Positions 21,439-50,762 of a stretch of DNA of 64,000 nt are shown piece after piece. The first letter of the stretch is position 1; every line of letters starts with the position of its first letter. Below the pieces are notes generated by a model that saw only the letters and a program-made list of their open reading frames with translations, had not been told where the DNA came from and ran no database searches. The translations under genes were made by a program, and so were the position numbers. The DNA is from an uncultured Lentisphaerales bacterium (GTDB lineage Bacteria > Verrucomicrobiota > Lentisphaeria > JABSQK01 > JAJFLO01). The stretch lies in NCBI GenBank assembly GCA_964615975.1, contig CAZTTH010000001.1:6559-70558 (forward strand), given 5' to 3'.

Positions 21439-24036
21439 TTATTCCTTGGATACACTACTTCGCGTGGAGAATTGGTAATCATTATCAAAATAATCGATTT
21501 CTAACGCCATGTTTTCACTGATTTCGTTGCCTATCAGCATACGTGAAATTGGCGTTTCCAAACGGCGGGAAATCACACGTTTCAATGGCCTTGCTCCATA
21601 TATCGGATCGTATCCCTCATGGGCTAATTGTTTTTTGGCATTTTCCGCAACAATCAAATCTATCTGCAGTTTTTTCAGTTTATCTTTAAATAATTCTAAC
21701 TGAATGTCTACAATTTTTACCAGGTCACAGTCGGATAATGATTTAAACACGACGATATCATCTATTCGATTGAGAAATTCTGGACGGAATATCTGACGTA
21801 ATGCCATCATGACCTCATCTTTTTTCTTTGCTTCGGTGAGCGATTCATCTAAAAGAATCCCGCTACCAACATTTGAGGTCATGATAATAATGGTATTTTT
21901 GAAATCGACAATATGTCCCTGGGAATCTGTCAAACGTCCATCATCAAGTAATTGCAATAACACATTAAATACTTCTGGATTAGCCTTTTCTATTTCATCA
22001 AAAAGTATCACGGCAAATGGATGTCGCCGAATGGCTTCGGTCAATTGTCCGCCTTCATCATATCCCACGTAGCCAGGGGGAGCGCCAATTAACCTGGATA
22101 CACTGTGTTTTTCCATGTATTCAGACATGTCAATGCGCACCAATGCACGTTCATCGTCAAACATTAATTCAGCAAGGGCACGGGCTAATTCGGTCTTACC
22201 TACTCCTGTTGGCCCTAAAAATATAAAACTACCAATTGGTCGATTGGGGTCTTTCAGACCTGCACGAGAGCGGAGTATGGCATCGGCAACCGCATCAACC
22301 GCTTCATTTTGGGATATTACTCGTTGATGAAGCAGGATGCCAAGTTGCAACAAGCGTTCCCGTTCACTTTGTAATAATTTGGTTATCGGGATGTGCATCC
22401 AACGACTGATTATTTCAGCAATATCGTTCTCATCAACCTCGCGTTTTAACAGTCTCTTTTCACCGGAATCGGCGATTCGTTTTTCAGCGTCATTTACCTG
22501 GCGTTCCAAATTAGGAATAATCCCATAACGCAGTTCGGCGACTTTATTCAAATCATAATTTCGTTCTGATTCTATGAGATTACGTTTCGCCAATTCGAGA
22601 GATTCTCTTAGGGCTTGGATATCGCTTATCGAATTTTTTTCCGCATCCCATTTGGCCTGCATAACCTGTAAATTCTCGTTGAGATCATACAAATCTTCTT
22701 CCAGTTTTTCCCTGCGTAAGTTTGATTCGTTATCACTTTCTTTTCTTAGTCCGGTAATTTCAATTTCCATTTGCAGTTTGCGCCGCGCTAATTCATCAAT
22801 TTCTACAGGACGACTATCAATCTCGGTCCGTAATTTTGCGGCAGCTTCATCGATCAGATCTATGGCTTTGTCCGGCAGGAATCGTTCGGAAATATAGCGA
22901 TTGGATAAAATTGCGGCACTGACAAGAGCGGAATCACGGAGGGTAACCCCATGATGTACTTCATAACGTTCCCTAAGGCCGCGTAAAATTGAAATGGTAT
23001 CTTCCACACTTGGTTGATCGACTAAAATTGTCTGAAATCGACGTTCAAGCGCCTTGTCTTTTTCAATGTGTTTGCGATATTCATTCAGAGTGGTGGCGCC
23101 AATACAATGAAGTTCACCACGCGCCAGCATTGGCTTTAAAAGATTCCCAGCGTCCATTGCGCCTTCTGCAGCGCCGGCACCAACCACGGTGTGTAGTTCA
23201 TCTATAAAAAGAATTATATCACCTTTTGCTTCAATGACTTCCTTGAGTACTGCCTTTAAACGTTCTTCGAATTCACCCCGATATTTTGCCCCAGCAATCA
23301 ATGCCCCCATATCGAGGGCGATAATGCGACGCTGCTTTAAGCCATCCGGAACGTCCTGTTGTATAATCCTTAATGCCAATCCTTCGACAATTGCAGTTTT
23401 ACCGACACCGGGATCACCGATCAGGACGGGATTATTTTTGGTGCGGCGTGATAAGATTTGAATAACCCGGCGAATCTCATCGTCACGGCCTATCACTGGA
23501 TCGAGTTTATGCTGTTGTGCTGCCGCAGTTAAGTCCCGTCCATATTTTTCTAATGCCTGAAATGTTGCTTCTGGAGTTGGTGAGGTAACCCGTTGATTGC
23601 CGCGAACTTCTCTTAGACCACCAAGAAGTTTAGCCTCATTGATACCAAATTTACCTATAATTGAATCACACTCATGATCCGTTTTGATTAAAGCGAGGAG
23701 TAAATGTTCGACGCTGACATAATCATCCTTCAGTTTTTTAGCGATTGATTGTGCTTCATTTAATGCCTGACTGAATTCACGGGTGGCAGATGGTTGTCCT
23801 ACACCGGGACCCGTAACTTTTGGTATCTTCATCAAAGATCGATCAATTTCATGTTTGATATCGTTAATCGCGACACCCAATTTTTCGAATAAAGCGGGGG
23901 TGAGCCCATTTTGCTGATTAACCAATGTGCTAAACAGATGTATTGGATGTAAATTCTGATGTTTCAACTCCGTAGCAAGTTGCTGAGTCACGACGAGTGA
24001 TTCTTGGGATTTTTCAGTAAAATTATTGATATTCAT
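21439..24036 (-). CDS. clpB: ATP-dependent chaperone ClpB
   Basis: 865 aa with an N-domain, two AAA+ modules (GDPGVGKT… and …[11 protein letters not shown]…), a long middle coiled coil and a C-terminal …[25 protein letters not shown]…. Confidence 0.95.
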
Positions 24037-28942: not shown

Positions 28943-30112
28943 TTACCGTCTGTGCAAGGTTAAGATACTGAGGAAAAATGATGATAATATAATCTGGTAG
29001 CCAAGAGCGGTCAGCATGGCACCGGGGATGACCAACCGCATGGTATTGCGGTAATCCAAGCGCCCAAAGTTGGATTCATGCCAAATTAAAATGGCGATAA
29101 GTAACAGCACGGTCCCCAATATTAGTAAACTTGCACCACCCAAAAGACGTTTTTCCAGTTTATGATTATCCGTTTCAATTTCACGTTCCTTCCAATTGGG
29201 AAGAAAACCTTCTGACAATGCAAACGATTGAGTGAATTCCCCAAAGAGAATTGATTGGTATCCTAAGAGAATAAAGAGACTGGCGAATAACAAAGTATGA
29301 CCTTCAAAAGTGATACCTTGAATGGTTAATCCCGGTAGGGCAATGACATAACCTAATAAGCCCAAAAAAAAGCAGCAATAACCGGGAATACGATACAGCC
29401 ATTGCGGCGAACACATTAAAAAATACCGAAGAGTTCGCCAACCGTCACGAACGGTACGCAAATGAGAGCGGTGAGTTTTTCGGCCATCTTGATGGAGGGT
29501 AATTGGAACTTCACATATATTGGCGCCGAGCAAGCTGGATTTGATGATCATTTCCACCGCAAACTCCATGCCTGTGCAACGCAGGTTCATCCGCAGGTAA
29601 TGTGTTTTGGTAAAACCGCGCATTCCACAATAAATATCATGAATCTGGCTGTTAAACCACCATTTCGCCATTAACGAAAACATTGGGTTACCCCACCACT
29701 CATGAGAGATTGGCATGGCGCCCGGTTTTATGGTTCCACCACCTGAAGCAAGTCGACATCCTTGTACCAGATCAAATCCGGATCGGAGTTTTTCGATAAA
29801 TTTTGGTAATTCCAAAAAGTCATAGCTATCATCTGAATCTCCAATTATGATATATTGGCCAGACGAAGCATCGATCCCAGACATCAATGCATTGCCATAA
29901 CCGCGCTCAAGTGCTTTTACAACTTTAGCGCCCGACTTTTCTGCAATTACAATCGATGAGTCATTGCTGCCATTATCAGCGACGATGATTTCTCCCTTTA
30001 GTTGGTATTCGCTGAAAATTTTATTGATCTTTTTAAGACATGAGCCTAGAGTGTCAGCTTCATTCAAGCAAGGGATGACAATCGATACTTCTATGGGATA
30101 TTCTGGATTCAT
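28943..30112 (-). CDS. GT2-family glycosyltransferase with C-terminal membrane domain (polyprenyl-phosphate sugar synthase-like)
   Basis: 389 aa; N-terminal VSIVIPCLNEADTLG…IIVADNGSNDSS…IIGDSDDSYD matches GT2 DXD motifs. Four C-terminal TM helices. Confidence 0.8.
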   Translation of the reverse strand: MNPEYPIEVSIVIPCLNEADTLGSCLKKINKIFSEYQLKGEIIVADNGSNDSSIVIAEKSGAKVVKALERGYGNALMSGIDASSGQYIIIGDSDDSYDFLELPKFIEKLRSGFDLVQGCRLASGGGTIKPGAMPISHEWWGNPMFSLMAKWWFNSQIHDIYCGMRGFTKTHYLRMNLRCTGMEFAVEMIIKSSLLGANICEVPITLHQDGRKTHRSHLRTVRDGWRTLRYFLMCSPQWLYRIPGYCCFFLGLLGYVIALPGLTIQGITFEGHTLLFASLFILLGYQSILFGEFTQSFALSEGFLPNWKEREIETDNHKLEKRLLGGASLLILGTVLLLIAILIWHESNFGRLDYRNTMRLVIPGAMLTALGYQIILSSFFLSILTLHRR

Positions 30113-30370
30113 AAGTCTTGAAAAGGAGTATGGTGTGTTATATGAACAGTATCTGATAATATGATTTCAGATGAAGTTCATCAACTTGCAAGGTCATGCT
30201 GACAATTGGTATTTTGCAAATACTGTATATGGTTGGAATCAGTTAATGGTGTTATAAAATTTTATTATACTATGTCGTGTGCCGATGATAAAGGCTTAAT
30301 ATTATCTGAGGCTGAGTTAATTATTCAATTCATTGTCTGGGAATGATAATAGTCCTTGAAGAGGAAGTTT

Positions 30371-31636
30371 ATGATTCGTTTAATTGAAGCCTTAAATTTT
30401 CGCAATCTAAATTATATTCGCCAACCGGTTCATAACTTTCAAGTGTTGATTGGTACTAATGGTTCTGGCAAGTCGAATTTTCTTGACATACTTTCCTTTT
30501 TAGGACGATTTATATCCAAAGGAGCGAAAGTGGCCATCACCGAACGAAGTAATAATTTTCGTGATTTGACCTGGCGTCGAAATGCCAACCGTTTTGAATT
30601 GGCAATCGAAGCTGAAATCCCCCCAGAACATCGACGTCCCTTAGACTCCCCTGAATACGATATCATTCGTTATGAGTTCGCAATTGGTATCACCCCTGAA
30701 AACCAGGATCTGATTTCATTTGATGAACAGATTACTTTGATTCAACAAAGCGAAATGACGGAGAGTGCGGTCAGCTCTTTGGAGAAAATCCCAGATACAG
30801 TATTCGTTGCTGACTACCACCAAATGTATAAGCAACTAATAGCCTATGATGAAAAGGGGAATTTATTGTTGTACCCGGAAGAGTCATTTGAAAATCAGGG
30901 GTGCCTGACATCTGACAATTACCTTTTACCCAACCGTCTCGAACCCAACCTATCGGTTTTTTGCGCCATACAAGCTTTCGAGAATGAATTTCCAGCTGCC
31001 AATTGGCTGGTACGTTTTCTCACTCAAAGTTTGTTTCAAATTCGATTGGATAGCTCCACCATGCGTCAACTCAGTCGTTATGGTCAGGAGTTTCTATTTA
31101 CCGAATATGGCGCCAAGCTGCATTGGGTAATCGAACGAATTAAAAAGGAAACACCAGATCGATTTGTTGATTGGTTGACGCAAATAAAATCACTGATGCC
31201 AGACCTCGAAGATATTGTCATCCATGAACGTCCAGATGACCGAAAAAAAATTATTGCAATCCGTTATAATGATGGGTTTGAAATCCCATCGGGTTTAATG
31301 TCAGAAGGGCTCCTGCGCTTGCTGGCGTTGACCAGTCTGCCATATTTTCCTGATAAGGGTTATCTATGTATTATTGAGGAACCTGAGAATAATCTGCATC
31401 CATTAGCTTTGGAGATTGTTATCCGGAATTTACGATCGAATTTTTCTGGTCAGATCATAATGACTACTTATTCGCCATTTGCTTTGGGATTATGCCATGC
31501 GCATGAGGTGCTGATATTTTCTGCTGATTCCCAACATGGCGCCCAAATTACCAGTGGTTCACAACACCCTGGTATCTCATATAATTTGGCTGACAGTGGA
31601 TTAAAGACTTTATTTGAAATGGGGGAATTGAATTAG
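30371..31636 (+). CDS. orphan AAA_21/ABC-type ATPase (OLD/PtuA/AriA-like P-loop protein)
   Basis: ATG at 30371 is preceded by GAAGAGGAAG. Walker A is VLIGTNGSGKSNFLD. ABC-signature-like region plus Walker B/D-loop is LLRLLALTSL…YLCIIEEPENNLHPLALE. H-loop-like region is QIIMTTYSPFAL. There is no fused nuclease domain and no partner gene. Confidence 0.7.
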   Translation: MIRLIEALNFRNLNYIRQPVHNFQVLIGTNGSGKSNFLDILSFLGRFISKGAKVAITERSNNFRDLTWRRNANRFELAIEAEIPPEHRRPLDSPEYDIIRYEFAIGITPENQDLISFDEQITLIQQSEMTESAVSSLEKIPDTVFVADYHQMYKQLIAYDEKGNLLLYPEESFENQGCLTSDNYLLPNRLEPNLSVFCAIQAFENEFPAANWLVRFLTQSLFQIRLDSSTMRQLSRYGQEFLFTEYGAKLHWVIERIKKETPDRFVDWLTQIKSLMPDLEDIVIHERPDDRKKIIAIRYNDGFEIPSGLMSEGLLRLLALTSLPYFPDKGYLCIIEEPENNLHPLALEIVIRNLRSNFSGQIIMTTYSPFALGLCHAHEVLIFSADSQHGAQITSGSQHPGISYNLADSGLKTLFEMGELN

Positions 31637-31724
31637 AAAATCATCTCTTGGTTTTGTTAAGGTCACCATTTCTATGATTATTCAACTATAAACTTAGCTT
31701 ATCATTGTCAGGGAATGATTAAGA

Positions 31725-32939: not shown

Positions 32940-32979
32940 GAGAGGGTAGATAAGTAAGAAATTAGCAACTGAATAAAAT

Positions 32980-33031
32980 TGGTTACCCCGCCTGGACTCG
33001 AACCAGGACAAACAGGATCAAAACCTGTTGT
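32980..33031. repeat. 52-bp direct repeat (att site), partial 3' copy of tRNA-Gln
   Basis: TGGTTACCCCGCCTGGACTCGAACCAGGACAAACAGGATCAAAACCTGTTGT is identical to 41779-41830. It corresponds to the 3' 52 nt of the tRNA-Gln gene. Confidence 0.9.
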
Positions 33032-33147
33032 TATAGGTATAAAAATTAAATAGTGTGGTTGTTATGTGGTGATAATTCATGTATAATAGTGTCATATAGT
33101 TTCTATTGGTGTTAGTTAAATCATTAATCAATTAAAGGGATAATCGT

Positions 33148-34467
33148 ATGGCACGTCATAACAAGGGCACACTCTACAAACGCGGTAAAATTTACTGGCT
33201 TGAATATTACGTTAATAATGAGCGAATTCGAGAAAGTCTTAAGACCAGCAATCTCAAAGAGGCACAATCCAAGCGGGATATAATAATCAACGACCTGAAA
33301 GCCCGCAAGAATGAAGACAAACATATCGCTATCCTCCATCGAGTCAAAGATGCAGAACATGCCCGCATAGAAGCCGAACAGAAACTTCAGGATTTCCGCG
33401 AAGAAAACCGAACTAAATTGAAAATAACCGATGTTTGGGAGCATTACCTTGCCAGTAAAGAACGTCCTCAATCCGGTCAAGGAACATTAAAGGATTACGA
33501 TTATTGCTGGCGGAAATTTGTTATGTGGTGGTCGAATAATGATGGCGATCAACGCCCGTATGTAGAGGACATCAAAAAAGAAGACGCCTCGAAATTCGCC
33601 AGATTTCTTGATACAGAACAATTAAGTCCGAACCGTTACAATAAAATTATTATTTCCTGCAAGCTGGTATTAAATGTTATTGCCCCTTTATGCAATGATA
33701 TGGCCAATCCTTTTGCCGGGATTCGGAATAAACGGCTTGACCCTCAAGGTCATCGAAAATTGACCGTTGAAGAACTCCGAATAGTGTGTGGTAAAGCAAC
33801 CGGTGAAATGCGCGTTTTATTTGCGATTGGTTTGTTCACTGCTCTGAGAATGGGAGATTGCTGTACTTTGCAATGGAACGAAATCAGTTTAGAACTTGAT
33901 CGCATCGTTAGAAAACCCAATAAAGTCAAAAGTCGTAAGAAAAAGAATACCCTTATTATTCCCCTGCACCCCGATCTCCGGAAAATCCTTGTTGAGATCC
34001 CCCAGGATACGCGGCAAGATTATGTTTTACCTGAATATGCCAGTCTCTATCTTAGAGATCGTGGCGCGGTCAGCAAAAAAATACAGCAACACTTTACTGA
34101 TTGTGGAATAGATACCAAGGGGGGAAGGACTGGAAAAAATGCACCGCCCGAAGTTGGATTCCATTCGCTCAGGCATACCTTTGTCAGCATGGCTGCTCAA
34201 GCGGGTGTTCCATTACCGATCATTCAGGAATTGTGCGGCCATGAATCTTCTGCCATTCAACAGGTATATCTTCATATGGGAGAAGATGCTACCCGGCAAG
34301 CTATCCTAGCCTTGCCGAATATCGGCAATCCCGTTAACGACAACCAGCTTCTCCCGATGCCATCCAGTCAATCCCGAAATCAAGAAGCCATCGCCTTACT
34401 GAATTCCATGAATGCCAAAAACTGGGATGAAATCAAAGATAAAGTAATTAGAATACTATCTTCTTGA
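33148..34467 (+). CDS. int: tyrosine-type site-specific integrase
   Basis: 439 aa; catalytic residues in …TALRMGDCCTLQW…, HSLRHTFVSMAAQAG and …VYLHM (R…HxxR…Y). Sits adjacent to the attL repeat. Confidence 0.9.
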   Translation: MARHNKGTLYKRGKIYWLEYYVNNERIRESLKTSNLKEAQSKRDIIINDLKARKNEDKHIAILHRVKDAEHARIEAEQKLQDFREENRTKLKITDVWEHYLASKERPQSGQGTLKDYDYCWRKFVMWWSNNDGDQRPYVEDIKKEDASKFARFLDTEQLSPNRYNKIIISCKLVLNVIAPLCNDMANPFAGIRNKRLDPQGHRKLTVEELRIVCGKATGEMRVLFAIGLFTALRMGDCCTLQWNEISLELDRIVRKPNKVKSRKKKNTLIIPLHPDLRKILVEIPQDTRQDYVLPEYASLYLRDRGAVSKKIQQHFTDCGIDTKGGRTGKNAPPEVGFHSLRHTFVSMAAQAGVPLPIIQELCGHESSAIQQVYLHMGEDATRQAILALPNIGNPVNDNQLLPMPSSQSRNQEAIALLNSMNAKNWDEIKDKVIRILSS

Positions 34468-34479
34468 CTCAATTTAGAC

Positions 34480-35970
34480 TTAATCATTATTGGAGTTAAA
34501 CCATCGAATTTCTTTGTCAATAGCAGCTATAATTGAATTTGGAAATATGTAAATAAGGGGAAAATATACACCATGTGAACGGTAATGTAACGCGGTTACA
34601 ATAAAACCGATTTTACTCATAGCCATATTATCATATTTGAGCTGATTAAATATTTGGCAAACTGCTGCTTTTGAACATCCTAAAATTTTCCCTATATCAG
34701 TTAAAAAAGGCTTCAGATCAACCATTCCCTTCTTTGCATCATGTCTTTTTATTCGCCTTAGTGATTCCAATTCATTTAATGTCAAACCGATATCACTCGA
34801 AACAGTTTTTGCGATTGTGTAAGATTCTAAATCTTGGTCTATTGGGTACCAGCACATCCCACATTCCGGGCACTTAACTTCAATGTTAAAATTCGAATTA
34901 TCATCATTTGACAACTCGTCATCTTTCCATTTTTCGTCAGTATCAACTACATAAGATGTTCGATTTTTATCAATCCATTTCCCCTTTATTTGGCATGTCT
35001 GACAAACTAGTTTGCTTGGAGCTAAGATTTGATTAAGAAACCCTTTAACCAAAACATAAGTTTCATGGTTATTGAGAGTTGGATTTTTTCTCTTTTGATA
35101 TTCAAAAAGCTTTCCATAAATTAAATCAAAATAAATCTTTTCATCTTGAGGATTTCTTTTTTGACTAAAAATCGAATCTAAGTGAATCAGCAAACCTTGG
35201 ATGTATCGAATTTGCCCATTTGTGAATGAAGTCATCAAATTCATAAATTCATTACTGGGCTTTGGTAAACACGGATAAAGTTTTTTTGATAACTCACATA
35301 CCCTGGCATCCTTGAAAGTTGTTTTACAAGAATATTTAGGTAGCCTTATATTTTTTGTTAACTCCCGTGGCATAAAAAGTAATCGCCACAAGATAATTAT
35401 CTCTCGTGTTTTTGACGATTTCACAATGATATTATTTGCTTTGGGCTTCCAGTTCCATTTTATAACTGCATCTAATGAATAAAATTTTTTCTTATCTCTC
35501 CTCTCTATTGAATTCCCTAATTTCCCCTTATTAGCTGCTCTTTTAATTGTTGGAATTGATTTGCCAGTTAGTAAGTTTATATCATCATATCCCAGTCCCT
35601 TATCGTACCCCCATGAAGTTTGAACCCTCGGATTAATTAAGGTTTTTTTATATATCTCCCTCAATCGTTGTAATTCACATTCAAGAATCTTGTTTTGGTC
35701 AGTTAAAGTTAAATCAATTCCATGTAACCTGATCTTTATGTTTGCAGATGGAGGAAAAACTTCCCATTCTTTTGGAAAGTAAACTTTGAATGGAATTTTG
35801 AATTCAAATTCATAGTGGTCAATGATTGAAGCCAGAATATTTGTCAATAACTCATATATAAAGTATATAGCGTTACTTTCTTCTAATTCAGTAATTCTTC
35901 CCTTCTGCAAGTCGTTATCCAAAACGCTCGATCTTAACGGTGTGTTCATAATCTTCTTCATAGGTCGCAT
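34480..35970 (-). CDS. hypothetical 496-aa island protein (Zn-ribbon CxxC…CxxC, C-terminal HTH-like segment)
   Basis: Long AT-rich ORF convergent with int and divergent from the XRE gene. Contains CQTCQ…CPECGMC and a C-terminal DIGKILGCSKAAVCQIFNQL helix-turn-helix-like stretch. No family recognised. Confidence 0.55.
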   Translation of the reverse strand: MRPMKKIMNTPLRSSVLDNDLQKGRITELEESNAIYFIYELLTNILASIIDHYEFEFKIPFKVYFPKEWEVFPPSANIKIRLHGIDLTLTDQNKILECELQRLREIYKKTLINPRVQTSWGYDKGLGYDDINLLTGKSIPTIKRAANKGKLGNSIERRDKKKFYSLDAVIKWNWKPKANNIIVKSSKTREIIILWRLLFMPRELTKNIRLPKYSCKTTFKDARVCELSKKLYPCLPKPSNEFMNLMTSFTNGQIRYIQGLLIHLDSIFSQKRNPQDEKIYFDLIYGKLFEYQKRKNPTLNNHETYVLVKGFLNQILAPSKLVCQTCQIKGKWIDKNRTSYVVDTDEKWKDDELSNDDNSNFNIEVKCPECGMCWYPIDQDLESYTIAKTVSSDIGLTLNELESLRRIKRHDAKKGMVDLKPFLTDIGKILGCSKAAVCQIFNQLKYDNMAMSKIGFIVTALHYRSHGVYFPLIYIFPNSIIAAIDKEIRWFNSNND

Positions 35971-36055
35971 CAAAAGATCCTAATAGCTTAACCTTTGTAA
36001 GGAGTTAACGCCAACATACGTGGCAATAACAACCAAAAATATAAAGGCAAGTATT

Positions 36056-36283
36056 ATGAATGAACAAACCCCATTAAGGAAACATCGGCTATCAAAAAAA
36101 TGGACGATGTCAAAGCTGGCAAAAGAAGCCAGAGTCTCACTATCAACACTATCAAGATATGAAAACGACTGGGACACACCAACATATCAAACAGCTCAAC
36201 GCCTGGCTATCGCCTTGGAAGTGGAAGTCAGTCAAATCTATCCCAATAAGACTCTTAAAGAATCGGGGAGGGCTCTGATATGA
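36056..36283 (+). CDS. XRE-family helix-turn-helix transcriptional regulator
   Basis: MNEQTPLRKHRLSKKWTMSKLAKEARVSLSTLSRYENDWDTPTYQTAQRLAIALEV is a canonical HTH_XRE. The ATG at 36056 is preferred over the track start. Confidence 0.8.
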   Translation: MNEQTPLRKHRLSKKWTMSKLAKEARVSLSTLSRYENDWDTPTYQTAQRLAIALEVEVSQIYPNKTLKESGRALI

Positions 36284-36630
36284 AATTCAAGAACAAACCT
36301 CCTGAAAGTACACTCCTGGCAATTGTCCATCTGATTCAACCATTTGTCAGAGAAGAAATAACCCCCCAACTTCTGATCGAGACCTTGAAGCAATTCATTC
36401 CCAATCATGAAGCAAACAACCAAACTTCATCAATCCCCATTGCAAAATCGATTTCGATAATCGAAGCGGCCAACCGTCTCAATGTGAGTAAATCAACGAT
36501 CTGGAGATTGATCCGGGTGGGGATACTGAAACGATCAAAACTGGGCTCAAGAACCGCTCGCATTTCAGAACGTGATCTTGCAGCATTGATAGAGAAGGGA
36601 GGTTACGACTATGAGAAAAAACAATCGTAA
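36280..36630 (+). CDS. AlpA/excisionase-family HTH protein (HTH_17-like)
   Basis: C-terminal SIIEAANRLNVSKSTIWRLIRVGILKRSKLGSRTARISERDLAALIEKG matches MerR-type excisionase/AlpA HTH. Overlaps the XRE stop. Confidence 0.65.
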   Translation: MKFKNKPPESTLLAIVHLIQPFVREEITPQLLIETLKQFIPNHEANNQTSSIPIAKSISIIEAANRLNVSKSTIWRLIRVGILKRSKLGSRTARISERDLAALIEKGGYDYEKKQS

Positions 36631-36841
36631 TCACTCTCAACAAGCATACTTTGTCGGCCATTATACTGGAAAACAGATTCCCAAATGTACTTGTTGTGGG
36701 ATCCTCATTACGAACTGGAACCTTGGCGGGAGCAATCGAGAAAATGGAAGTACCATTACTGGTAATGTTCCTTGCAATCGTTGTGTCGATCCTGAATGCC
36801 CACCGGATTGTTTAGTTGTAAAAGAGGGAGTCAGCTTATGA
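36611..36841 (+). CDS. small Cys-rich (zinc-ribbon-like) protein
   Basis: 76 aa with CTCCG…CNRC…CPPDC. The ATG start overlaps the upstream gene, and its stop overlaps the primase ATG (ATGA), suggesting a coupled operon. A small ORF, so uncertain. Confidence 0.4.
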   Translation: MRKNNRNHSQQAYFVGHYTGKQIPKCTCCGILITNWNLGGSNRENGSTITGNVPCNRCVDPECPPDCLVVKEGVSL

Positions 36842-39390
36842 ACACCCCCCTTATCCAATTCATGATCGACGACTTGGCAAAATCCGGAATCTCATACAAA
36901 TGGGCTGTAAAACACGGATTAAGACCAGTGAATGCCAATGAATTGGCTTCCATGCTTGGATTTTCCCCCAAGAATATCAACGGTAACCAGTGTGAAGGTT
37001 ATGTAATCCCGTTCTTTGATCCCATCACGAAAAAACCCATGTTTTGCCCAGATGGTCACCGTGATTATGTTCGCGTCAAGCTCCGTGTTCCGGCCATCGA
37101 CAAAGATGGCGACCCGGCAAAATACCTTTCACCAAAAGATGCTGGCCAACATGCTTTGATTCTGCCTGAAGTCCATGCTTATTTACAAGATTCACAAAAG
37201 CCGGTAATAATAACTGAAGGTGAGAAGAAAGCCTTGGCTGCAACCCTGGCTGAATTGCCTACTATCGCATTGACCGGCAATCATGGCTGGAATATCGGCA
37301 AGACCAATGAACTATTGCCGGAATTATCCCGCTATATCGATCATAAACTGTGGATTGCCGTTTATGATTCCGATGCCAAAATCAATCCTGATTTTCACCG
37401 TTCCTTGGCACGAATGGCATTCGCGCTGTCAAAATTTGATTGCCAGCTCTATGCCGTCTATCTCCCGTCCATGGGCAACGGCAAAGTGGGGATCGATGAT
37501 TACTTGGTCGAACATGGCAAGACCATTGACGACTTAACGCGATACATAAATGAAACCAAAACCCTGGTCTCCACTGAAGATATTCCAATATCAACAAAAC
37601 CGTCGAATCACAAATCCAAGCGTTCACCCAATCAAGCGGAATTATTGGTACGTTTGACTAAAGAAATCACCTTATTTCACGGCCTTGAAGATTGCACCAA
37701 AACATATGCCAGCATTTCAATCGACAATCATTTTGAAACTTGGCCATTAAACAATCAATGTTTTTATAATTGGTTATCAAAACAGTATTATAAGACATAT
37801 AAAAAAATCCCCGGATCACAAGCAATTAACGATGCAGTAAAAACCGTTCAGGGCATTGCTCAATTCGACAAAGAAGCAATTCATGTGGGAATAAGATTCA
37901 CTTTCTATCAAGAAAGTATTTGGCTTGATCTGTGCGATCCAGAATGGCGAATCGTTAAAATTTCATCCAATGACTGGAAAATCGTTTCCGCCAAAGATGC
38001 CCCGGTAAAATTTATTCGTCGTCGTGGAATGCTACCATTGCCACAGCCTCAATCGGGGGGAAACTTCGATGATCTCAGACAACTATTGCATATCGAAGAC
38101 GATCAAAATTGGTATTTGATACTTGGTTGGCTGACCGGAGCATTACATCCCACCGGTGGATATCCCATGTTGGTAGTTAATGGCGAACAGGGGAGCGGTA
38201 AAAGCACACTGTGCAAATTTTTGCGATACTTAATTGATGCCAATACTGCCGCCCTGCGTCGCCCCCCCAAAGAACCAAAAGATTTATTCATTGCCGTTAA
38301 AAACAGCTACTTGATTGCATACGATAATCTTTCCAGTGTTCCTGATTGGTTATCGGATTCTTTGTGTACAATATCGACAGGTGGTGGATTTGCGACGCGG
38401 GAATTATATAGCGATGATGAAGAAATAATAATAAACGCTGTACGCCCGATAATCATTAATGGCATTCCCAACCTGGGGACTCGATCCGATTTGGTGGATC
38501 GTTCAGTTTGTCTACAAATGAAAGAAATTCATAACCAACAACGTAAAAGCGACCTTTACCTTGAAAATGAATTCTCTCGTTTAGCCCCATCTCTAATTGG
38601 AAAACTATGCGAAACCGCATCACATGGACTTCGTAAATATCGGCAAATTGAATTATCTGAAACGCCACGCATGGCGGATTATGCTCAATGGATTGTCGCT
38701 TGTGCCCCCGCCTTGGAATTTCATGAAAATACTTTACTGAATGCCTATCTATCTAATCGTCAGGAAATCAATCTTGATACCCTTGAACATTCGCCGCTTG
38801 CCAAAATAATTGAACGCTATTTGGAATCCGATCATCGATGGCAGGGAACATGCGGAGAACTCCTTAAGGCATTTCAGAAACTTTGTAATGATGATACTTC
38901 AGTATCTTCATCAGATTTACCCAAAACATCAAGAAAACTATCCAATGATCTAAAGCGCATTGCACCCAATTTGCGTATGAACGGGATCGAAGTTCAATTC
39001 GGTAACAAAACGAATAAGGGCAGGACAATCACTTTAGAAAAGGTTGGGAAAACACCGTCACATCCGTCACCATCGTCACAAAATAATCATAAAATATTGA
39101 ATACGAATAACATAGATTCTCATACAACCAGTGATCATTGTGTGACGTTTACCCAGAAGAGTGACGATACCGATTCATTATCAAATAACCCGGTGTCGAT
39201 TGAAGAAAGAAATATGATCATCAGTGATGGTGGAAAAGATTCGAAAGTCACCATCGCAACCAGTTGCAAACAAACTTCTTCTGAATCAACAGATCATTCA
39301 AGTGACGATAGTGACGATTGCCACCCCATATCTTCTAAATCGATATCTGAGAATGAATATGATCCCAATGTTACAACCTGGTTGTATTGA
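36838..39390 (+). CDS. replication primase-helicase (TOPRIM/DUF3854-like domain + P-loop NTPase) with Ser/Asp-rich C-terminal tail
   Basis: TOPRIM-like PVIITEGEKKALA…IAVYDSDAKIN…GIDDYL. Walker A VVNGEQGSGKST and Walker B LIAYDNL, typical of P4/D5-type primase C-terminal helicases. The last ~130 aa are low-complexity S/D/T-rich. Confidence 0.8.
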   Translation: MNTPLIQFMIDDLAKSGISYKWAVKHGLRPVNANELASMLGFSPKNINGNQCEGYVIPFFDPITKKPMFCPDGHRDYVRVKLRVPAIDKDGDPAKYLSPKDAGQHALILPEVHAYLQDSQKPVIITEGEKKALAATLAELPTIALTGNHGWNIGKTNELLPELSRYIDHKLWIAVYDSDAKINPDFHRSLARMAFALSKFDCQLYAVYLPSMGNGKVGIDDYLVEHGKTIDDLTRYINETKTLVSTEDIPISTKPSNHKSKRSPNQAELLVRLTKEITLFHGLEDCTKTYASISIDNHFETWPLNNQCFYNWLSKQYYKTYKKIPGSQAINDAVKTVQGIAQFDKEAIHVGIRFTFYQESIWLDLCDPEWRIVKISSNDWKIVSAKDAPVKFIRRRGMLPLPQPQSGGNFDDLRQLLHIEDDQNWYLILGWLTGALHPTGGYPMLVVNGEQGSGKSTLCKFLRYLIDANTAALRRPPKEPKDLFIAVKNSYLIAYDNLSSVPDWLSDSLCTISTGGGFATRELYSDDEEIIINAVRPIIINGIPNLGTRSDLVDRSVCLQMKEIHNQQRKSDLYLENEFSRLAPSLIGKLCETASHGLRKYRQIELSETPRMADYAQWIVACAPALEFHENTLLNAYLSNRQEINLDTLEHSPLAKIIERYLESDHRWQGTCGELLKAFQKLCNDDTSVSSSDLPKTSRKLSNDLKRIAPNLRMNGIEVQFGNKTNKGRTITLEKVGKTPSHPSPSSQNNHKILNTNNIDSHTTSDHCVTFTQKSDDTDSLSNNPVSIEERNMIISDGGKDSKVTIATSCKQTSSESTDHSSDDSDDCHPISSKSISENEYDPNVTTWLY

Positions 39391-39727: not shown

Positions 39728-39901
39728 ATGACACGACAAGAAGTTATCACCATTTTAGAGCGGATGATTCGCGACGAAAATACCATTGATTATGATCGGA
39801 TACAGGCGATTGCGGAGTTGGCAAAAATCCAAGGCTTTTATGCCCCCAATCAATTCATAACCAAACTACAGCCATGCCTTGAATTAATGAACCTCAACTG
39901 A
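39728..39901 (+). CDS. hypothetical small protein
   Basis: 57 aa from an ATG preceded by GGAGAAG. No motif. Confidence 0.3.
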   Translation: MTRQEVITILERMIRDENTIDYDRIQAIAELAKIQGFYAPNQFITKLQPCLELMNLN

Positions 39902-40384
39902 CAACTTCATGGGTTCCTTAATGCCTTTGACCGTTGTCATGTGTTCATATACCGATATCGCCCGGGCAGCCGCAATCCTTCGAGAGACCTCCCGCGTACT
40001 GATTGTTCCGGGTGGGGTGTTCAAATTCAGGTTTGCATTGTAGTTTTCAGAACGTATGGGCGGGAACTCCCCGGCCAATTTACAATCGATTTCAATTGCC
40101 CTCAACCGATCCGCCACATTCAGGCTGTCATTAAACATCAGTTGACTTAATAATTCCCGCTTTTCCTGCAATGTCGCAACTTTGCTTTTGGCAACTTCCT
40201 TCTGTAGCTCTTTTATTCTGTCCTGAATACCAACATTTTTCAACAAAAGCCGGGAAGCTGCCGATGCCGCAATCTTGGGATTTTTCACATTCCACCCGCT
40301 TTTCCGATACGCTTCAGCCTTGGAATACCCCTCCGCGATCAATTGCGCGAACTTCTCATATCGTGGATGATTGATCACAGACAT
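39884..40384 (-). CDS. terS: phage terminase small subunit (Terminase_2/P27 family) homologue
   Basis: 166 aa; PRYEKFAQLIAEGYSKAEAYRKSGWNVKNPKIAASAASRLLLKNVGIQDRIKEL matches the Terminase_2 N-terminal HTH consensus. Confidence 0.7.
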   Translation of the reverse strand: MSVINHPRYEKFAQLIAEGYSKAEAYRKSGWNVKNPKIAASAASRLLLKNVGIQDRIKELQKEVAKSKVATLQEKRELLSQLMFNDSLNVADRLRAIEIDCKLAGEFPPIRSENYNANLNLNTPPGTISTREVSRRIAAARAISVYEHMTTVKGIKEPMKLSVEVH

Positions 40385-40457: not shown

Positions 40458-41240
40458 CTAATTTTCCTTCTTCCATTTCCATGGAGGTATCGGGCTGGTG
40501 TCTGCCCATAACCCGATCTTTTTTTCACGCGCATCTTGTTCAGTGGAATTAAAAACCCCTGAACACGGTTTATCATAATTATAACACCATGCTAACCCTT
40601 CTTTTAGCATTTGATAATTAACGGTCGTTTCTAAAAGTTTGTTTTCATCATCAATCAATTCAGTTCCATCATCAATCAATTTTTTTTTATCCAGTAATAA
40701 CACAATCCCAATATAGAAATCATGTCTTTCTTTTTTTTCACATATTACCATAAGTGGAACACTTCCTTGTGTTAGCTCGGAAGACACTAATTTAGTCAAA
40801 TAAAATTTTGCTTTATATCCATAAGGTTGATCTAATTCTGGTGCATCAATTCCCTTAAGTCTAATTACGTACAATCCATGATCGTCATCCGATCTGATTT
40901 TTAATGTATCTCCGTCAATTATGGATTCTGCCATTCCAGAAAACGACATTGTTTCCAATTCGTTTGATTTCACAATCGTTTCTTGTCCAGGAAGTTCTGG
41001 TTTTGCTTTTTTATCATCCATCAAACCATCAACCTGTTTAAATTTATTATCAGACCAAGACCACTCATAGGTTTTGAATGCACCAAATTTTGTGTCAAGG
41101 ATTACTATTACCGATTGATTTGCTCTTGCTGTGTGTACTTGATACCGTCCAATGTCCACATTTTGTTTATGACAATACCAGTATAGCCACATCGAAAAAG
41201 CAAAGAAGAGATAAAGTATAGCTATTTTTATATTGCTCAC
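40458..41240 (-). CDS. membrane-anchored thermonuclease (SNase-like) domain protein
   Basis: 260 aa with an N-terminal TM segment and a C-terminal SNase core (DGDTLKI…IRLKGIDAPELDQPYGYKAKFYL…LKEGLAW…AREKKIGLW). GTG start. AT-rich gene. Confidence 0.8.
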   Translation of the reverse strand: MSNIKIAILYLFFAFSMWLYWYCHKQNVDIGRYQVHTARANQSVIVILDTKFGAFKTYEWSWSDNKFKQVDGLMDDKKAKPELPGQETIVKSNELETMSFSGMAESIIDGDTLKIRSDDDHGLYVIRLKGIDAPELDQPYGYKAKFYLTKLVSSELTQGSVPLMVICEKKERHDFYIGIVLLLDKKKLIDDGTELIDDENKLLETTVNYQMLKEGLAWCYNYDKPCSGVFNSTEQDAREKKIGLWADTSPIPPWKWKKEN

Positions 41241-41778
41241 TTTATCGATATATAATTGTGTTTATGAGTCATTGGGTTGGTTATATCATTAAACAATAAG
41301 TGCGATAGCAATGAATTGTTTGAGGGATACTCATCAATTCTTTATGATTTTTCCTGTGACGATTATAAATTAAATTCGTTATATTCTATGTTCCTTACCA
41401 TTTAATGGTTGTGAATTTCTCATTATCGTTTGTAGTGATAACAAATCACAGACGGTCATTCATCAAGATTTTGATTAAAAATAATCAGAAATTGCCAATC
41501 TGGCAACTCATGATAAAATTTCTAAACAACCACTGTACCACCAAAATAATTGTTATGGATGAGTGGCATATTTTTGTCAGACTCTTTAACACCTTCCGGA
41601 AACATCCCCAAAAATATTTTGAACCTACCCCCACAGGTCGTGATCGATAATGCCCCCGCCCCCCCTCCATATTAAAACGACCAGCCTAAAGCAGACTGTG
41701 GTTGTTATGTGGTTGTTATTCGGGGGCAATGTGGTGGTTTCATAAAGTGTCAGATAGGCTTTATTAGCCTCAAATGAA

Positions 41779-41853
41779 TGGTTACCCCGCCTGGACTCGA
41801 ACCAGGACAAACAGGATCAAAACCTGTTGTGCTACCGATTACACCACGGGGTA
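41779..41853 (-). tRNA. tRNA-Gln (anticodon TTG), intact; 3' 52 nt form the right att repeat
   Basis: Minus-strand sequence TACCCCGTGGTGTAATCGGTAGCACAACAGGTTTTGATCCTGTTTGTCCTGGTTCGAGTCCAGGCGGGGTAACCA. Acceptor TACCCCG/CGGGGTA. Anticodon stem ACAGG/CCTGT with loop TTTTGAT. Confidence 0.85.
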
Positions 41854-41985: not shown

Positions 41986-43296
41986 TTAATTATTGTTTTC
42001 GACACGCATGATGGCTTGATAAATATTCGCGAACAAAGTTTCTAATTTATCGAATGGTGTCGATGAATATGCGACCCGGATTACATCGTTAAGCACGATA
42101 ACTCCGGTCGAATATTCTTTAAGTAATAATTTACGAACGAGTTCCGGATCGACTTTTTTGGGTTTTAAGCACATGAAATAACCGGAATTGAAGGGCAGGG
42201 GATCCCAGGCATTGGTGTATTCAGGATGAGTAGATAATATGATTTTAATCTGATCATAGCGCCGTTTCAATGTGGCATATTTCTGGCGTTTTTGCGCTTC
42301 ATAATCCCGGGAATTGTAGGCCTGGTTTAACAATGCCTGTGAGATATTCGGGCTGTTGGATATATTGCCACGGATCGCGCCGGCTGTCTTAGCTTCCAAT
42401 GCGGTATACAAAGCGGGAGTGCCGCCCTTGATGGCATAGGTGATAAAACCCACACGAAAACCCCAGACATAATCTTCCTTGGTTGAGCCGTCAATCTTGA
42501 TGGTAAGGACACGTTCGTGCAGATTCGCCAAATATGGAAAGATGGATTCCGTGAGAATACCAGGTTCAAACACCAGGCCGAAATATGCGTCATCGATGAT
42601 TATGACAATGTTATTGCCAGCATCAGCAGCCTCATAGATGACATCACGGATTTGCTCTGCTTCGGCTGGCGACACCGTATAACCGGTGGGATTGTTGGGG
42701 AAGTTCAAAGATACAATCCGTTTACCGGTGGGACCGGTCTGGAGCAGTTCTTTCAGCCCTGCGACATTGAATCCATTGTTCAGGTTAAAGGTTGGGAAGG
42801 TATGAAAACATGTGCCATAAGCGTTTTCGTACATCAACTGATAATTTTCCCAGAGCAAATCAGGCGTATAAAAGCGATCACCCTCATTGATAAACAAATA
42901 ACCACACATGCTCAATCCATGAGTCAACGCACAAGACACTATCGGCATACTGATAGCAATATCTTTAAGCGCTGGGTTTTTCTGATAAATCATTTTTTTC
43001 CAGGTCGCACGAATATCCGGACGTCCGGGACTGGGCGCATATGGGAAGATTTCATTGCTATCCTGGATCACAGCTTGTGAAATACAATCCAGGCACATTG
43101 GTGCGCCGTTATCTTCCAAAGCGATACCAATGGTGGCATTAACCGCTTTGCCTTTTGCTTCAGCCGCCTGCGCGAGTATGCCCCTTTGTGGAAAGTAAAT
43201 GGACTTACCGCGTGCCGAGAGCATTTCGGGAAGATAGGGATTCGCATTTCGAATAATTTCGTTCAACTCGCTTGCTTGGATGTTCAAATCACTCAT
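41986..43296 (-). CDS. class I/II PLP-dependent aminotransferase
   Basis: 436 aa with NFPNNPTGY and the Lys-containing DGSTKEDYVWGFRVGF motif. Exact specificity not assignable. Confidence 0.7.
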   Translation of the reverse strand: MSDLNIQASELNEIIRNANPYLPEMLSARGKSIYFPQRGILAQAAEAKGKAVNATIGIALEDNGAPMCLDCISQAVIQDSNEIFPYAPSPGRPDIRATWKKMIYQKNPALKDIAISMPIVSCALTHGLSMCGYLFINEGDRFYTPDLLWENYQLMYENAYGTCFHTFPTFNLNNGFNVAGLKELLQTGPTGKRIVSLNFPNNPTGYTVSPAEAEQIRDVIYEAADAGNNIVIIIDDAYFGLVFEPGILTESIFPYLANLHERVLTIKIDGSTKEDYVWGFRVGFITYAIKGGTPALYTALEAKTAGAIRGNISNSPNISQALLNQAYNSRDYEAQKRQKYATLKRRYDQIKIILSTHPEYTNAWDPLPFNSGYFMCLKPKKVDPELVRKLLLKEYSTGVIVLNDVIRVAYSSTPFDKLETLFANIYQAIMRVENNN

Positions 43297-48740: not shown

Positions 48741-50762
48741 ATGAAAATCCTCCTTATTGAAGACAACGAGCATAATCGAAAACTTGCCGCATTTCTATTG
48801 GAACGCCATGGATATAAGGTGGTTCTTGCGACATCAGGGACGGAGGGCATAGAGCTTGCACTTCAAACGCATCCAGCACTCGTTCTCCTCGACATTCAAT
48901 TGCCAGAAATGGATGGTTATGCTGTGGCCCGAACGCTCCGCGCCAATCCAAAACTGAATGCGATCCCGATAATCGCGGTAACCGCCTGTGCAATGGTCGG
49001 TGACCGTGAAAAAGCGATTGAAGCTGGTTGCCATGGCTATATCGAAAAACCCATTAATCCACTTACTTTCGTTACCGAAATCGAGCGTTTCCTCCCATCA
49101 TCTTCTAAATCGGTCGCACCTAAGATACGCGTGCTTTTAATTGACGACAAAGATGAAAACATCTATATGCTGCGAGCATTGCTTCAGGGTAATGGGTTCA
49201 TTGTGGACGAGGCTCATCATGGCGCAGAAGCATTGAGTAAGGCCCGAGTAATACGTCCGGATCTGGTCATCACCGACCTTTTGATGCCGGTGATGGATGG
49301 ATATACCTTCCTGCGCCATTGGAAAGCGGATGAGCAATTAACTATTATCCCCGTTGTCGTTTATACTGCGACTTACACCGATCCGAAAGATGAACGCCTT
49401 GCCTTGGACTCGGGTGCCGATGCATTCATCATCAAACCCTCTGAACCGGATGATTTCTTGGCGCGGATTCAGAAGATTTTAATCCAACAAAATGAAGGCA
49501 ATCTCAATCCGCCCATGCAACCACTAGCGGATGAGACTATTATTCTCAAGGAATACAATCAGGCATTGATCCGGAAACTGGAGGCAAGGACCTTGCAGTT
49601 GGAGCAGGGCAATCGTGATCTGGCTAAGAGAGAGAGTCACCTGAGAGCAATTTTTGACACTGAACCCGGGTGTGTGAAACTACTGAGTTTGGATGGCAGT
49701 TTAATCGCAATGAATCGTGCGGGACTCAATATAATCGAAGCCGACTCGTTGTCGCAAATGGAAAACAGAAGTGTTTTTTCCCTGGTAGTTGAGAAAGACC
49801 GTGCCGCCTTCCGCCAATTAACTGAAAACGTCTTTCGCGGCGAGAGCGGAGTATTGGAGTTCGAATTGATCGGCCTCAAAGGTAGTCGGCGATGGTTGGA
49901 AACCCATGCAGCTCCATTGCGTAACCAGGATGGGAAGGTCTCTTCCTTATTAGCGATTACCCTGGATATCACTGAGCGAAAAAGAGCAGAAGAAGAAATT
50001 CGCTTATTAAACGCAAAACTCGAACAACGGGTGCGCGAGCGTACCACACAACTTCTTGCCGCGAATCAAGAGCTCGAAGCCTTCACCTATTCAATATCAC
50101 ATGACCTGCGATCGCCGTTGCGCGCGATCAGCGGCTTTGCCGAGATTATTGCCAGTCGTCACCGTGAAAACCTGAATGAGGAAGGTCAGAGATATATCGA
50201 CAACATCGTCAAATCAAGCGAACGCATGGGACATTTGATTGACGATCTCCTGTCTTTTTCACGTCTTAATCATCAGTCAACAAGCCGAGTAACCATACCA
50301 TTAAGTGAAATTTTCACATCTTTGGTCAATGAACTGACCGAGCGCCTGCATGAAGTTGGCGGAACGCTCGAAATCGCGGCGAACCTACCAAAGGTACTGG
50401 GAAATCGGAGTTTGCTAAATCAAATTTTTTCCAATCTGTTGGATAACGCGATTACCTATCGGCGGAATCATGAGCCGGTGAAAATTAAAGTTGCTTCAAG
50501 CATTGAAGATAATTTTGCAGTTATCGAGATTCAGGACAACGGCATCGGAATTCCATCTGAATATCATGAAATAATCTTCAATGTCTTTCAGCGACTGCAT
50601 GGTGATGAACACTATCCCGGTACCGGGATCGGTCTGGCTACCGTGAAGAAATCGGTCGAGTTGCTTGGTGGCGAGGTAAGACTTAAATCCGAAATTAACG
50701 CAGGTAGTACCTTTATTGTCAAATTACCAGTGGCGCCGGATGGCGAAATGGTATCATCATAA
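48741..50762 (+). CDS. hybrid sensor kinase (REC-REC-PAS-HisKA-HATPase_c)
   Basis: 673 aa; two receiver domains (ILLIEDNEHN…LLDIQLPEMDG and VLLIDDKDEN…ITDLLMPVMDG), a PAS domain, H-box SISHDLRSPL, and ATP-binding …GTGIGLATVKKSVELLGG. Confidence 0.85.
   Translation: MKILLIEDNEHNRKLAAFLLERHGYKVVLATSGTEGIELALQTHPALVLLDIQLPEMDGYAVARTLRANPKLNAIPIIAVTACAMVGDREKAIEAGCHGYIEKPINPLTFVTEIERFLPSSSKSVAPKIRVLLIDDKDENIYMLRALLQGNGFIVDEAHHGAEALSKARVIRPDLVITDLLMPVMDGYTFLRHWKADEQLTIIPVVVYTATYTDPKDERLALDSGADAFIIKPSEPDDFLARIQKILIQQNEGNLNPPMQPLADETIILKEYNQALIRKLEARTLQLEQGNRDLAKRESHLRAIFDTEPGCVKLLSLDGSLIAMNRAGLNIIEADSLSQMENRSVFSLVVEKDRAAFRQLTENVFRGESGVLEFELIGLKGSRRWLETHAAPLRNQDGKVSSLLAITLDITERKRAEEEIRLLNAKLEQRVRERTTQLLAANQELEAFTYSISHDLRSPLRAISGFAEIIASRHRENLNEEGQRYIDNIVKSSERMGHLIDDLLSFSRLNHQSTSRVTIPLSEIFTSLVNELTERLHEVGGTLEIAANLPKVLGNRSLLNQIFSNLLDNAITYRRNHEPVKIKVASSIEDNFAVIEIQDNGIGIPSEYHEIIFNVFQRLHGDEHYPGTGIGLATVKKSVELLGGEVRLKSEINAGSTFIVKLPVAPDGEMVSS

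Follow-up and report, generated by a model that had tools for sequence, protein, structure and literature searches.

Pairs of an ATP-binding cassette (ABC) ATPase and a nuclease are a major theme of anti-phage immunity, as in OLD, Gabija, PARIS, Septu and HEC-01/MAD3-MAD4. The gene described here encodes an ATPase of the last of these kinds, and it stands without a partner. It lies in a stretch of 64,000 nucleotides, termed the window below, from an uncultured Lentisphaerales bacterium (GenBank assembly GCA_964615975.1, contig CAZTTH010000001.1, forward-strand positions 6,559 to 70,558). Judged by its sequence, the product is a solitary and divergent MAD3/HEC-01A member of the SMC/Rad50/OLD-type ABC ATPases. 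The best explanation of the locus, to which a probability of roughly 0.6 is assigned, is an old partnerless MAD3-like ATPase that has been kept under changed constraints, probably binds ATP and hydrolyses it poorly, and is not an autonomous nuclease-based defence. The locus is best described as an instance of loss or re-use of a defence gene, rather than as a new system, a new mechanism or a proven mobile cassette.

Closest Described Systems

HEC-01 (Hma-embedded candidate 1) combines an ABC ATPase with a TOPRIM protein and occurs within Hma systems; in the single published E. coli assay it conferred no protection (bioRxiv 10.1101/2024.01.29.577857). In the Methylation-Associated Defence System (MADS) of P. 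aeruginosa, deletion of mad3 or mad4 lowered defence, and mad5 could be deleted only jointly with mad2 or mad3 (bioRxiv 10.1101/2023.03.30.534895). The MAD3-MAD4 pair is found by itself or inside Hma/MADS methylation-linked defence operons. The normal partner of the ATPase is MAD4/HEC-01B, a TOPRIM-like protein of about 210 residues whose gene begins at or near the ATPase stop codon.

The window protein resembles MAD3 of MADS in its length of about 420 residues, in the order of its ABC motifs and in its collinearity over the full length, with residues 1–418 aligned to positions 1–425 of the 427 in the NCBIfam MAD3 model (NF047739). Its score on this model is 311.1 bits (E 1.4e-92), which is below the curated cutoff of 420. 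It also differs from MAD3 at W308, at T314, in the C-terminal tail and at the H-loop, where His is replaced by Tyr, and neither MAD4 nor another MADS gene is found in the window. Two broader Pfam families are matched above their gathering cutoffs, namely AAA_21 (PF13304; 81.5 bits, cutoff 27) and AAA_15 (PF13175; 58.2 bits, cutoff 32.1). A PADLOC comparison, which an earlier sequence-only reading of the locus had proposed as a check, returns HEC-01A as the top match (3e-37), compared to 5e-24 for mad3. For homologues such as P0004, and for the pair at locus L005, the flanking genes encode a DUF1156 methylase on one side and a DUF499 protein on the other, and a helicase is encoded close by; this is the Hma/MADS setting, just as described for Hma. 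At the window locus, neither HEC-01B nor the Hma genes were found.

The resemblance to other ATPases of immunity is more distant. An AlphaFold2 model of the window protein, made from an alignment of 29 family sequences, has an ABC head fold with a pLDDT score (predicted local distance difference test) of 81.7 and a predicted template modelling score (pTM) of 0.84. The top structures found with this model by Foldseek in the PDB are PtuA, OLD, GajA, SMC and Rad50 heads, at template modelling (TM) scores of about 0.4–0.5 and 12–15% identity, and a sequence-profile search of the PDB returns the same set. The best solved structures are those of PtuA from Septu and retron type I-A, with 8ee4 found by profile (1.2e-14) and 9n6b by Foldseek; however, the window locus has no PtuB/HNH neighbour, and the protein scores only 27 bits on the NCBIfam PtuA model, compared to a cutoff of 500. 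AriA of PARIS is likewise an ABC ATPase that acts with a separate TOPRIM effector (AriB, DUF4435), and the window protein matches its HMM locally (2.8e-24) as well as its structure, 8ux9. In this comparison only the C-terminal ATPase half aligns, the insert domains differ, and no AriB-like gene is present at the window locus. OLD nucleases and Gabija GajA share the ABC head fold and are matched by sequence and by fold (6p74 and the GajA structures), but they carry a fused TOPRIM domain that the window protein lacks, the identity is about 12–15% with a TM score of about 0.4, and the PADLOC matches to Old and GajA are only local. The sequence-only reading had placed the protein among defence-type ATPases such as those of OLD, Gabija, Septu and PARIS. 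The association with a defence family stands, and the family is MAD3/HEC-01A and none of those four.

The ATPase and Its Motifs

The ATPase gene lies alone between a GT2 glycosyltransferase gene (28943–30112, minus strand) and thiI (31725 to about 32939, minus strand), divergent from the former and convergent with the latter. Its start is taken to be the ATG at 30371 and not the TTG at 30356, because the homologues all open with MI(R/T)LIEALNF at the same point. Positions of the motifs and of other features are given in Table 1.

The elements expected of an ABC ATPase core are all present, namely Walker A, the Walker B acid with the catalytic Glu, and the D-loop. Residues G28, N30, G33 and K34 of Walker A are invariant among 168 relatives and are retained in the window protein, as are E336, E337, P338, E339 and H343, which are also invariant among these relatives. 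No further domain is fused to the ATPase. A Pfam scan with E values up to 1 reported no TOPRIM family, and only 50 residues follow the H-loop.

Much of what the sequence-only reading had claimed about this gene is borne out. A lone P-loop ATPase of 421 residues is encoded between the GT2 gene and thiI, its Walker A motif is GTNGSGKS, and neither a nuclease fusion nor a partner gene was found. Two of the motif assignments hold in part. The stretch CIIEEPENNLHP (residues 333–344), which had been read as a signature-like/Walker B region, is Walker B with the D-loop and not the ABC signature; a signature-like stretch lies elsewhere, at PSGLMSEGL (residues 306–314). TTYSP does occupy the position of the H-loop, but it has Tyr where 163 of the 168 relatives have His; the other five have Gln.

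Partner Genes in the Family and at This Locus

Members of this family are normally followed by their partner. In every one of the paired loci that were fetched directly, a gene encoding about 206–213 residues lies immediately 3′ of the ATPase gene. It overlaps the ATPase stop codon by 4 bp in four of five distinct loci and begins 23 bp past it at L014. The partners at L003, L005–L007 and L008 score 204–231 bits on the MAD4 model NF047734 (cutoff 160), and the downstream partners of about 206–211 residues at L013 and L014 match the MAD4 profile. A scan of metagenome contigs returned 80 family loci, among which those with 650 bp or more of downstream sequence, 56 in number, are informative. MAD4 is intact in 50 of these, split or truncated in five (L026, L043, L045, L046 and L052) and absent from one (L028). 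Partner decay is thus a recurrent event, seen in about 10% of the sampled family loci.

At the window locus, the partner is missing. No MAD4-like sequence was detected in the 64-kb window, or at L001, the locus of the closest homologue, by tblastn or by running the MAD4 hidden Markov model (HMM) on six-frame segments. The ATPase and thiI stop codons are separated by 88 bp, and this spacer contains no open reading frame (ORF) of 20 or more residues. No DUF1156-type methylase, DUF499 ATPase, helicase or other mad gene was found among the ORFs scanned across the window, where the sole mad2 match is to the methyltransferase fold of an RsmD-like protein of 189 residues, 19 kb away. Neither an AriB (DUF4435) nor a PtuB (HNH) gene is adjacent to the ATPase gene, the neighbours of which encode the GT2 protein and ThiI.

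Other family loci show several arrangements. At L013 (6457–11408), the usual gatCAB operon is interrupted between gatA and gatB by MAD3-MAD4, a two-gene module that has landed among core genes. At L014 (7453–8664), a second and different ABC-type ATPase gene (403 residues; SMC_N, AAA_15 and AAA_23) directly follows MAD3-MAD4. L028 (204–1460) has a partnerless MAD3-like ATPase of near-canonical sequence, followed by an extracytoplasmic function (ECF) sigma/anti-sigma pair.

A Two-Member Orphan Clade

A single contig is known to encode the identical protein. The closest after it is P0002 (GCA_021772635.1, locus L001), with 46% identity, and all others have at most 41%. P0002 also lacks MAD4, and its gene is found in a different context, between polyunsaturated fatty acid (PUFA) synthase genes and a ShlB/CHAT pair. 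This pair (L001, 11336–15473), consisting of a ShlB/POTRA outer-membrane gene and a TPR-CHAT protease gene, begins 67 bp past the sister ATPase on the same strand and has no equivalent in the window. The ThiI encoded on the 65-kb contig of P0002 is the fifth-best match to the window ThiI (53% identity, compared to 57% for the best), and on this basis the two hosts are among each other's nearest sampled relatives. By the same ThiI similarity, both hosts appear to lie near Lentisphaerota.

A profile built from these two orphan proteins scores 861 and 858 bits on the orphans themselves and 428 bits on the next protein, and a search with it returned no further member of the clade. The pair is recovered in 200 of 200 neighbour-joining bootstrap replicates. 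It forms a long branch, lying on average about twice as far from other members as the family median, and midpoint rooting of the tree places it outside the sampled family. On the MAD3 model, the orphans score about 300–311 bits (301 for P0002), compared to 431–517 for partnered members.

The orphans also differ from the family at sites that are otherwise conserved. At 134 positions with at least 90% conservation in partnered members, the window protein deviates at 39 and P0002 at 43, while the other 27 members deviate at 1–18 and mostly at fewer than 10. The deviations amount to about 40 per orphan, or about 30% of the conserved positions, and 30 of the deviating columns are common to both. 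W308 and T314 occur in all 168 relatives, and D312 in 164 of them. The window protein has G308, E312 and L314; all three positions are also changed in the sister orphan, such that both proteins have G308 and either L or I at 314. The window protein has neither His nor Gln at the H-loop, and it departs from the PSW...SDGT motif at residues that are invariant in the family. The catalytic Glu (E337), present in all 168 relatives, is retained in the window protein and is His in P0002. The near-invariant C-terminal GVLG tail is altered in both.

Other features have been maintained. Walker A, the Walker B acid, the D-loop, the Ser-x-Gly of the signature and the full length are retained in the orphans, whose intact frames of 421 and 422 residues align with a single one-residue indel. 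In addition, a new stretch, LDSSTMRQLSR, is conserved between the two. Judged by this pattern, the clade has probably been under purifying selection with altered constraints rather than decaying.

Probable Retention of the ATPase After a Proposed Loss of Its Partner

The favoured explanation proposes that a two-gene module of ATPase and MAD4 was ancestral and that its MAD4 half was lost, most likely in an ancestor shared with the P0002 lineage because P0002 is also partnerless. The ATPase gene would then have been retained intact under changed constraints, with the ATP-binding elements persisting and with residues for fast hydrolysis, as well as residues that do not vary among partnered members, being changed. 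The product of such a gene would bind ATP and dimerise, and it would serve as a switch or clamp that turns ATP over slowly or not at all. An ATPase unable to deliver a TOPRIM nuclease would not provide autonomous nuclease-based defence, and it may have been exapted as a sensor or regulator, or be used with an unlinked effector.

Several points weigh against this explanation. The proposed single loss is drawn from two genomes and one marker (ThiI), and the same picture would arise if the gene had been transferred between related lineages or if the pair were an old sister family without MAD4 in its past. Reduced hydrolysis is suggested by changes in motifs, and five partnered members have Gln at the H-loop, so this site appears to tolerate change. 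The window covers only 64 kb of the genome, so a MAD4-like gene or another effector may be encoded elsewhere. The alignment behind the AlphaFold2 model is made up mostly of canonical family members, and the model leans on them. What the parent module does is itself only partly established, HEC-01 having conferred no protection in the E. coli test. Finally, the gene is bracketed by a 20-mer that departs from local randomness (equalled in 0 of 200 shuffles), and exaptation of the ATPase leaves this unexplained.

Alternative Explanations

The bracketing 20-mer raises the possibility that the gene is a mobile cassette, in which a segment of about 1.4 kb was inserted site-specifically between the GT2 gene and thiI, the 20-mers are attL and attR, and a recombinase acts in trans. 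The predicted circular junction would read TTATCATTGTCWGGGAATGATAA. This explanation is unlikely. The direct repeat itself, which the sequence-only reading had put at about 21 bp, does bracket the gene as a 20-mer with the consensus TCATTGTC[T/A]GGGAATGAT[A/T]A (motif TCATTGTCWGGGAATGA), and its copies are identical at 18 of 20 positions. Each copy is a dyad with a 7-bp spacer, TCATT-N7-AATGA, and in this resembles a tyrosine-recombinase core site, but the central base of the spacer differs between the copies. The left arm of copy 2 and the right arm of copy 1, if joined, form an 8-bp inverted repeat without mismatches (TTATCATT-N7-AATGATAA), an observation made post hoc; in the reciprocal "empty site", each arm is perfect over only 5 bp.

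The statistical evidence on the repeat depends on the question asked. It is the sole direct pair in the window with at least 18 of 20 matches at a spacing of 300–4000 bp. Its mere existence is unremarkable, because windows simulated with a first-order Markov model contain 0.5 ± 0.7 pairs of this kind each. Its placement is less expected: the 18/20 match falls exactly in the two spacers that flank the gene, and in a comparison of spacer against spacer it exceeds all of 200 shuffles, the maximum of which is 16. The chance that any gene of the window would be so bracketed is roughly estimated at 0.01. The repeat is locally non-random, and there is no evidence that ties it to mobility.

Other identities of the repeat were considered and rejected. 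It is not a common intergenic or repetitive extragenic palindromic (REP) motif, which would have told against the idea of a cassette in the sequence-only reading, as the 64-kb window holds two copies and no third even at up to 3 mismatches. It is not a terminator or structured RNA, given fold z-scores of −0.3 to −1.2, no terminator-like overlap and no Rfam match. It is not a family feature: no flanking repeat above chance was found at the sister locus L001, at five paired MAD3-MAD4 loci or at one other partnerless locus, and the 20-mer motif is absent from the sister locus and the six others. Nor is it supported as a known phage or mobile-element site: the 13 matches in IMG/VR are single, roughly as many as chance would be expected to give for a 17-mer in a collection of that size, and none is paired.

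Composition and gene order bear on the same question. The GC content of the ATPase gene is 0.41, its GC content at third codon positions (GC3) is 0.383 compared to a window mean of 0.404 ± 0.063, and its codon-usage distance is 0.087 compared to 0.090 ± 0.023; a foreign composition was thus rejected. Among proteins in the database, the closest ThiI has 57% identity, and a scan of contigs with ThiI gave one locus, at 47%. In two relatives at 47–57% ThiI identity, the order aminotransferase–tRNA-Gln–thiI is kept, and the genes on the downstream side of thiI are unrelated, with no ATPase-like gene among them. The ATPase is therefore not a syntenic core gene, and the universal syntenic orthologue that could have undercut the cassette was not seen. 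This lack of synteny is compatible with insertion, as is the landing of MAD3-MAD4 pairs in core operons elsewhere (gatA/gatB, L013). The recent insertion proposed in the sequence-only reading nevertheless finds little support, given the native composition, the repeat-free sister and family loci, and the lack of a gene-linked recombinase, the adjacent integrase using an unrelated 52-bp tRNA-Gln site.

It is doubtful, too, that the gene is active in anti-phage defence, whether alone or with an unlinked effector, for which a TOPRIM, HNH or PIN nuclease is possible. What speaks for such activity is that the family is defence-associated, that selection is indicated by the preservation of the frame and of the ATP-binding motifs in two diverged lineages, and that the new residues common to both orphans suggest a new interaction surface. 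The canonical hydrolysis residues, however, are altered in both orphans. Nearly all sampled family loci keep the partner in cis, while none lies in cis in either orphan genome and the orphans have no conserved neighbour in common. The surroundings also speak against such activity, with no other defence-model match within ±5 kb of the ATPase gene and with the remaining matches in the window on housekeeping genes.

A combination of these ideas is quite unlikely. Here, a hydrolysis-poor ATP switch would have acquired a new role, either as a decoy or anti-addiction protein that would bind incoming nucleases of the MAD4 type and neutralise them, or as a sensor for an unlinked effector, and would perhaps also be a single-gene cassette moved by a trans-acting recombinase at the palindromic 20-mers.

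It is very unlikely that the lineage of the window protein and P0002 is an old sister family in which MAD4 was never present, with deep divergence accounting for its differences. The position of the pair outside the sampled family on the midpoint-rooted tree and its scores below the curated MAD3 cutoff would be expected in that case. However, the alignment with the family is full-length and the domains are unchanged, and by eye the variable insert is most like that of the subgroup of P0003, P0004, P0006 and P0008, of which P0004 has MAD4. Two members among 5.8 billion protein clusters would be an odd showing for an old independent family, and decay or loss of the partner is seen elsewhere (L026, L043, L045, L046, L052 and L028).

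That the gene is a functionless relic on its way to decay is extremely improbable: the lost partner, the altered catalytic residues and the changes at about 30% of family-conserved sites would fit, but two lineages at 46% identity keep full-length frames that differ by a single one-residue indel, all ATP-binding residues are kept, derived motifs are common to both orphans, and an unselected frame of 1.27 kb at about 40% GC would be expected to gain stop codons far earlier.

Neighbouring Genes and the tRNA-Gln Island

Table 1. Features of the ATPase locus and of the neighbouring island, in window coordinates.
Feature	Position	Strand	Basis or remark
Partnerless MAD3/HEC-01A-like ABC ATPase gene, 421 aa	30371–31636 (stop codon included)	+	ORF and translation
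Putative Shine-Dalgarno-like sequence AGAGGAAG, just 5′ of ATG 30371	30360–30367	+	Read from sequence
Walker A/P-loop GTNGSGKS, residues 28–35, intact	30452–30475	+	Alignment and residue counts
Signature-like region PSGLMSEGL, residues 306–314; family version PSWMASDGT	31286–31312	+	Alignment
Walker B and D-loop LCIIEEPENNLHP, residues 332–344; acidic E336, E337 and E339 retained	31364–31402	+	Alignment
H-loop position TTYSP, residues 365–369; Tyr367 instead of family His	31463–31477	+	Alignment and residue counts
Repeat copy 1, TCATTGTCTGGGAATGATAA, dyad TCATT-N7-AATGA, 21 bp 5′ of start codon	30330–30349	+	Repeat search
Repeat copy 2, TCATTGTCAGGGAATGATTA, in 88-bp convergent spacer, 3 bp from thiI stop codon	31702–31721	+	Repeat search
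Tyrosine integrase	33148–34467		Island ORF
497-aa ORF, no family	34480–35973	-	Island ORF
HTH_17 protein	36280–36630		Island ORF
864-aa DUF3854 protein	36796–39390		Island ORF
Small-terminase-subunit-like protein	39884–40384	-	Island ORF
SNase-domain protein	40458–41240	-	Island ORF

Beyond thiI lies an island of 8.8 kb, inserted in tRNA-Gln(ttg) and bounded by a perfect direct repeat of 52 bp (32980–33031 and 41779–41830), which is the 3′ part of the tRNA-Gln. As the sequence-only reading had noted, the left edge of the island is 1.3 kb from the ATPase stop codon. Both thiI and the ATPase gene are outside the island, and a link between ATPase and island was rejected, because perfect 52-bp repeats of its own delimit the island, whose edge is separated from the ATPase gene by 1.3 kb that includes thiI. 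No PADLOC system was found in the island. Its gene content looks like that of a phage satellite or of an element of the phage-inducible chromosomal island (PICI) type, and not like that of a defence island. Just inside its two ends, a 25-nt repeat, TGTGGTTGTTATGTGGT..., occurs at 33054–33078, 41697–41721 and 41708–41732, and these copies could be candidate arm-type binding sites of the integrase.

The left attachment (att) copy, a 3′ fragment of tRNA-Gln in the region 32940–33031, lies about 41 bp 5′ of the probable thiI start at 32939 and overlaps the N-terminal extension of the mechanically called thiI ORF, which runs from a TTG at 33011. Because this copy is so close to the thiI start, the insertion may have replaced the DNA upstream of thiI, and the thiI promoter may have been affected. 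At L009 (8009–11179; an uncultured Lentisphaeria) and L012 (8198–11374; an ENA assembly), a class I/II aminotransferase gene, tRNA-Gln and thiI are kept together, the aminotransferase side in the window being at 41986–43296. This comparison shows what is probably the ancestral order, aminotransferase–tRNA-Gln–thiI, which the island interrupts.

The view of the ATPase gene as part of a defence islet, put forward in the sequence-only reading, is not upheld by these surroundings, in which the island is phage-satellite-like without a PADLOC system and the other PADLOC matches of the window fall on ClpB, the RsmD-like methyltransferase and a sensor kinase. ClpB (21442–24036) matches PDC-M37B (6.5e-41) and DolB, the RsmD-like methyltransferase (10708–11274) matches mad2 (1.7e-13), and the sensor kinase (48741–50759) matches the N-terminal part of the SduA model (1e-15). 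These three matches would be false positives if they were taken as defence genes.

Significance

The remainder of the locus is ordinary, and its interest lies in the ATPase. A match to AAA_21, HEC-01A or mad3 by itself is insufficient for the annotation of a defence system, and such matches should be treated with caution. To our knowledge, the fate of an ATPase after the loss of its nuclease has rarely been documented. In this case the ATPase has stayed intact without a partner in two diverged lineages, with changes largely at the same conserved positions in both, which amounts to a natural experiment. Some of the changed positions are residues of the ATP site, and the rest may include parts of the interface with MAD4. 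This natural experiment could hint at the contact surface between MAD3 and MAD4, and it could test whether ATP hydrolysis in this family serves only to drive the nuclease.

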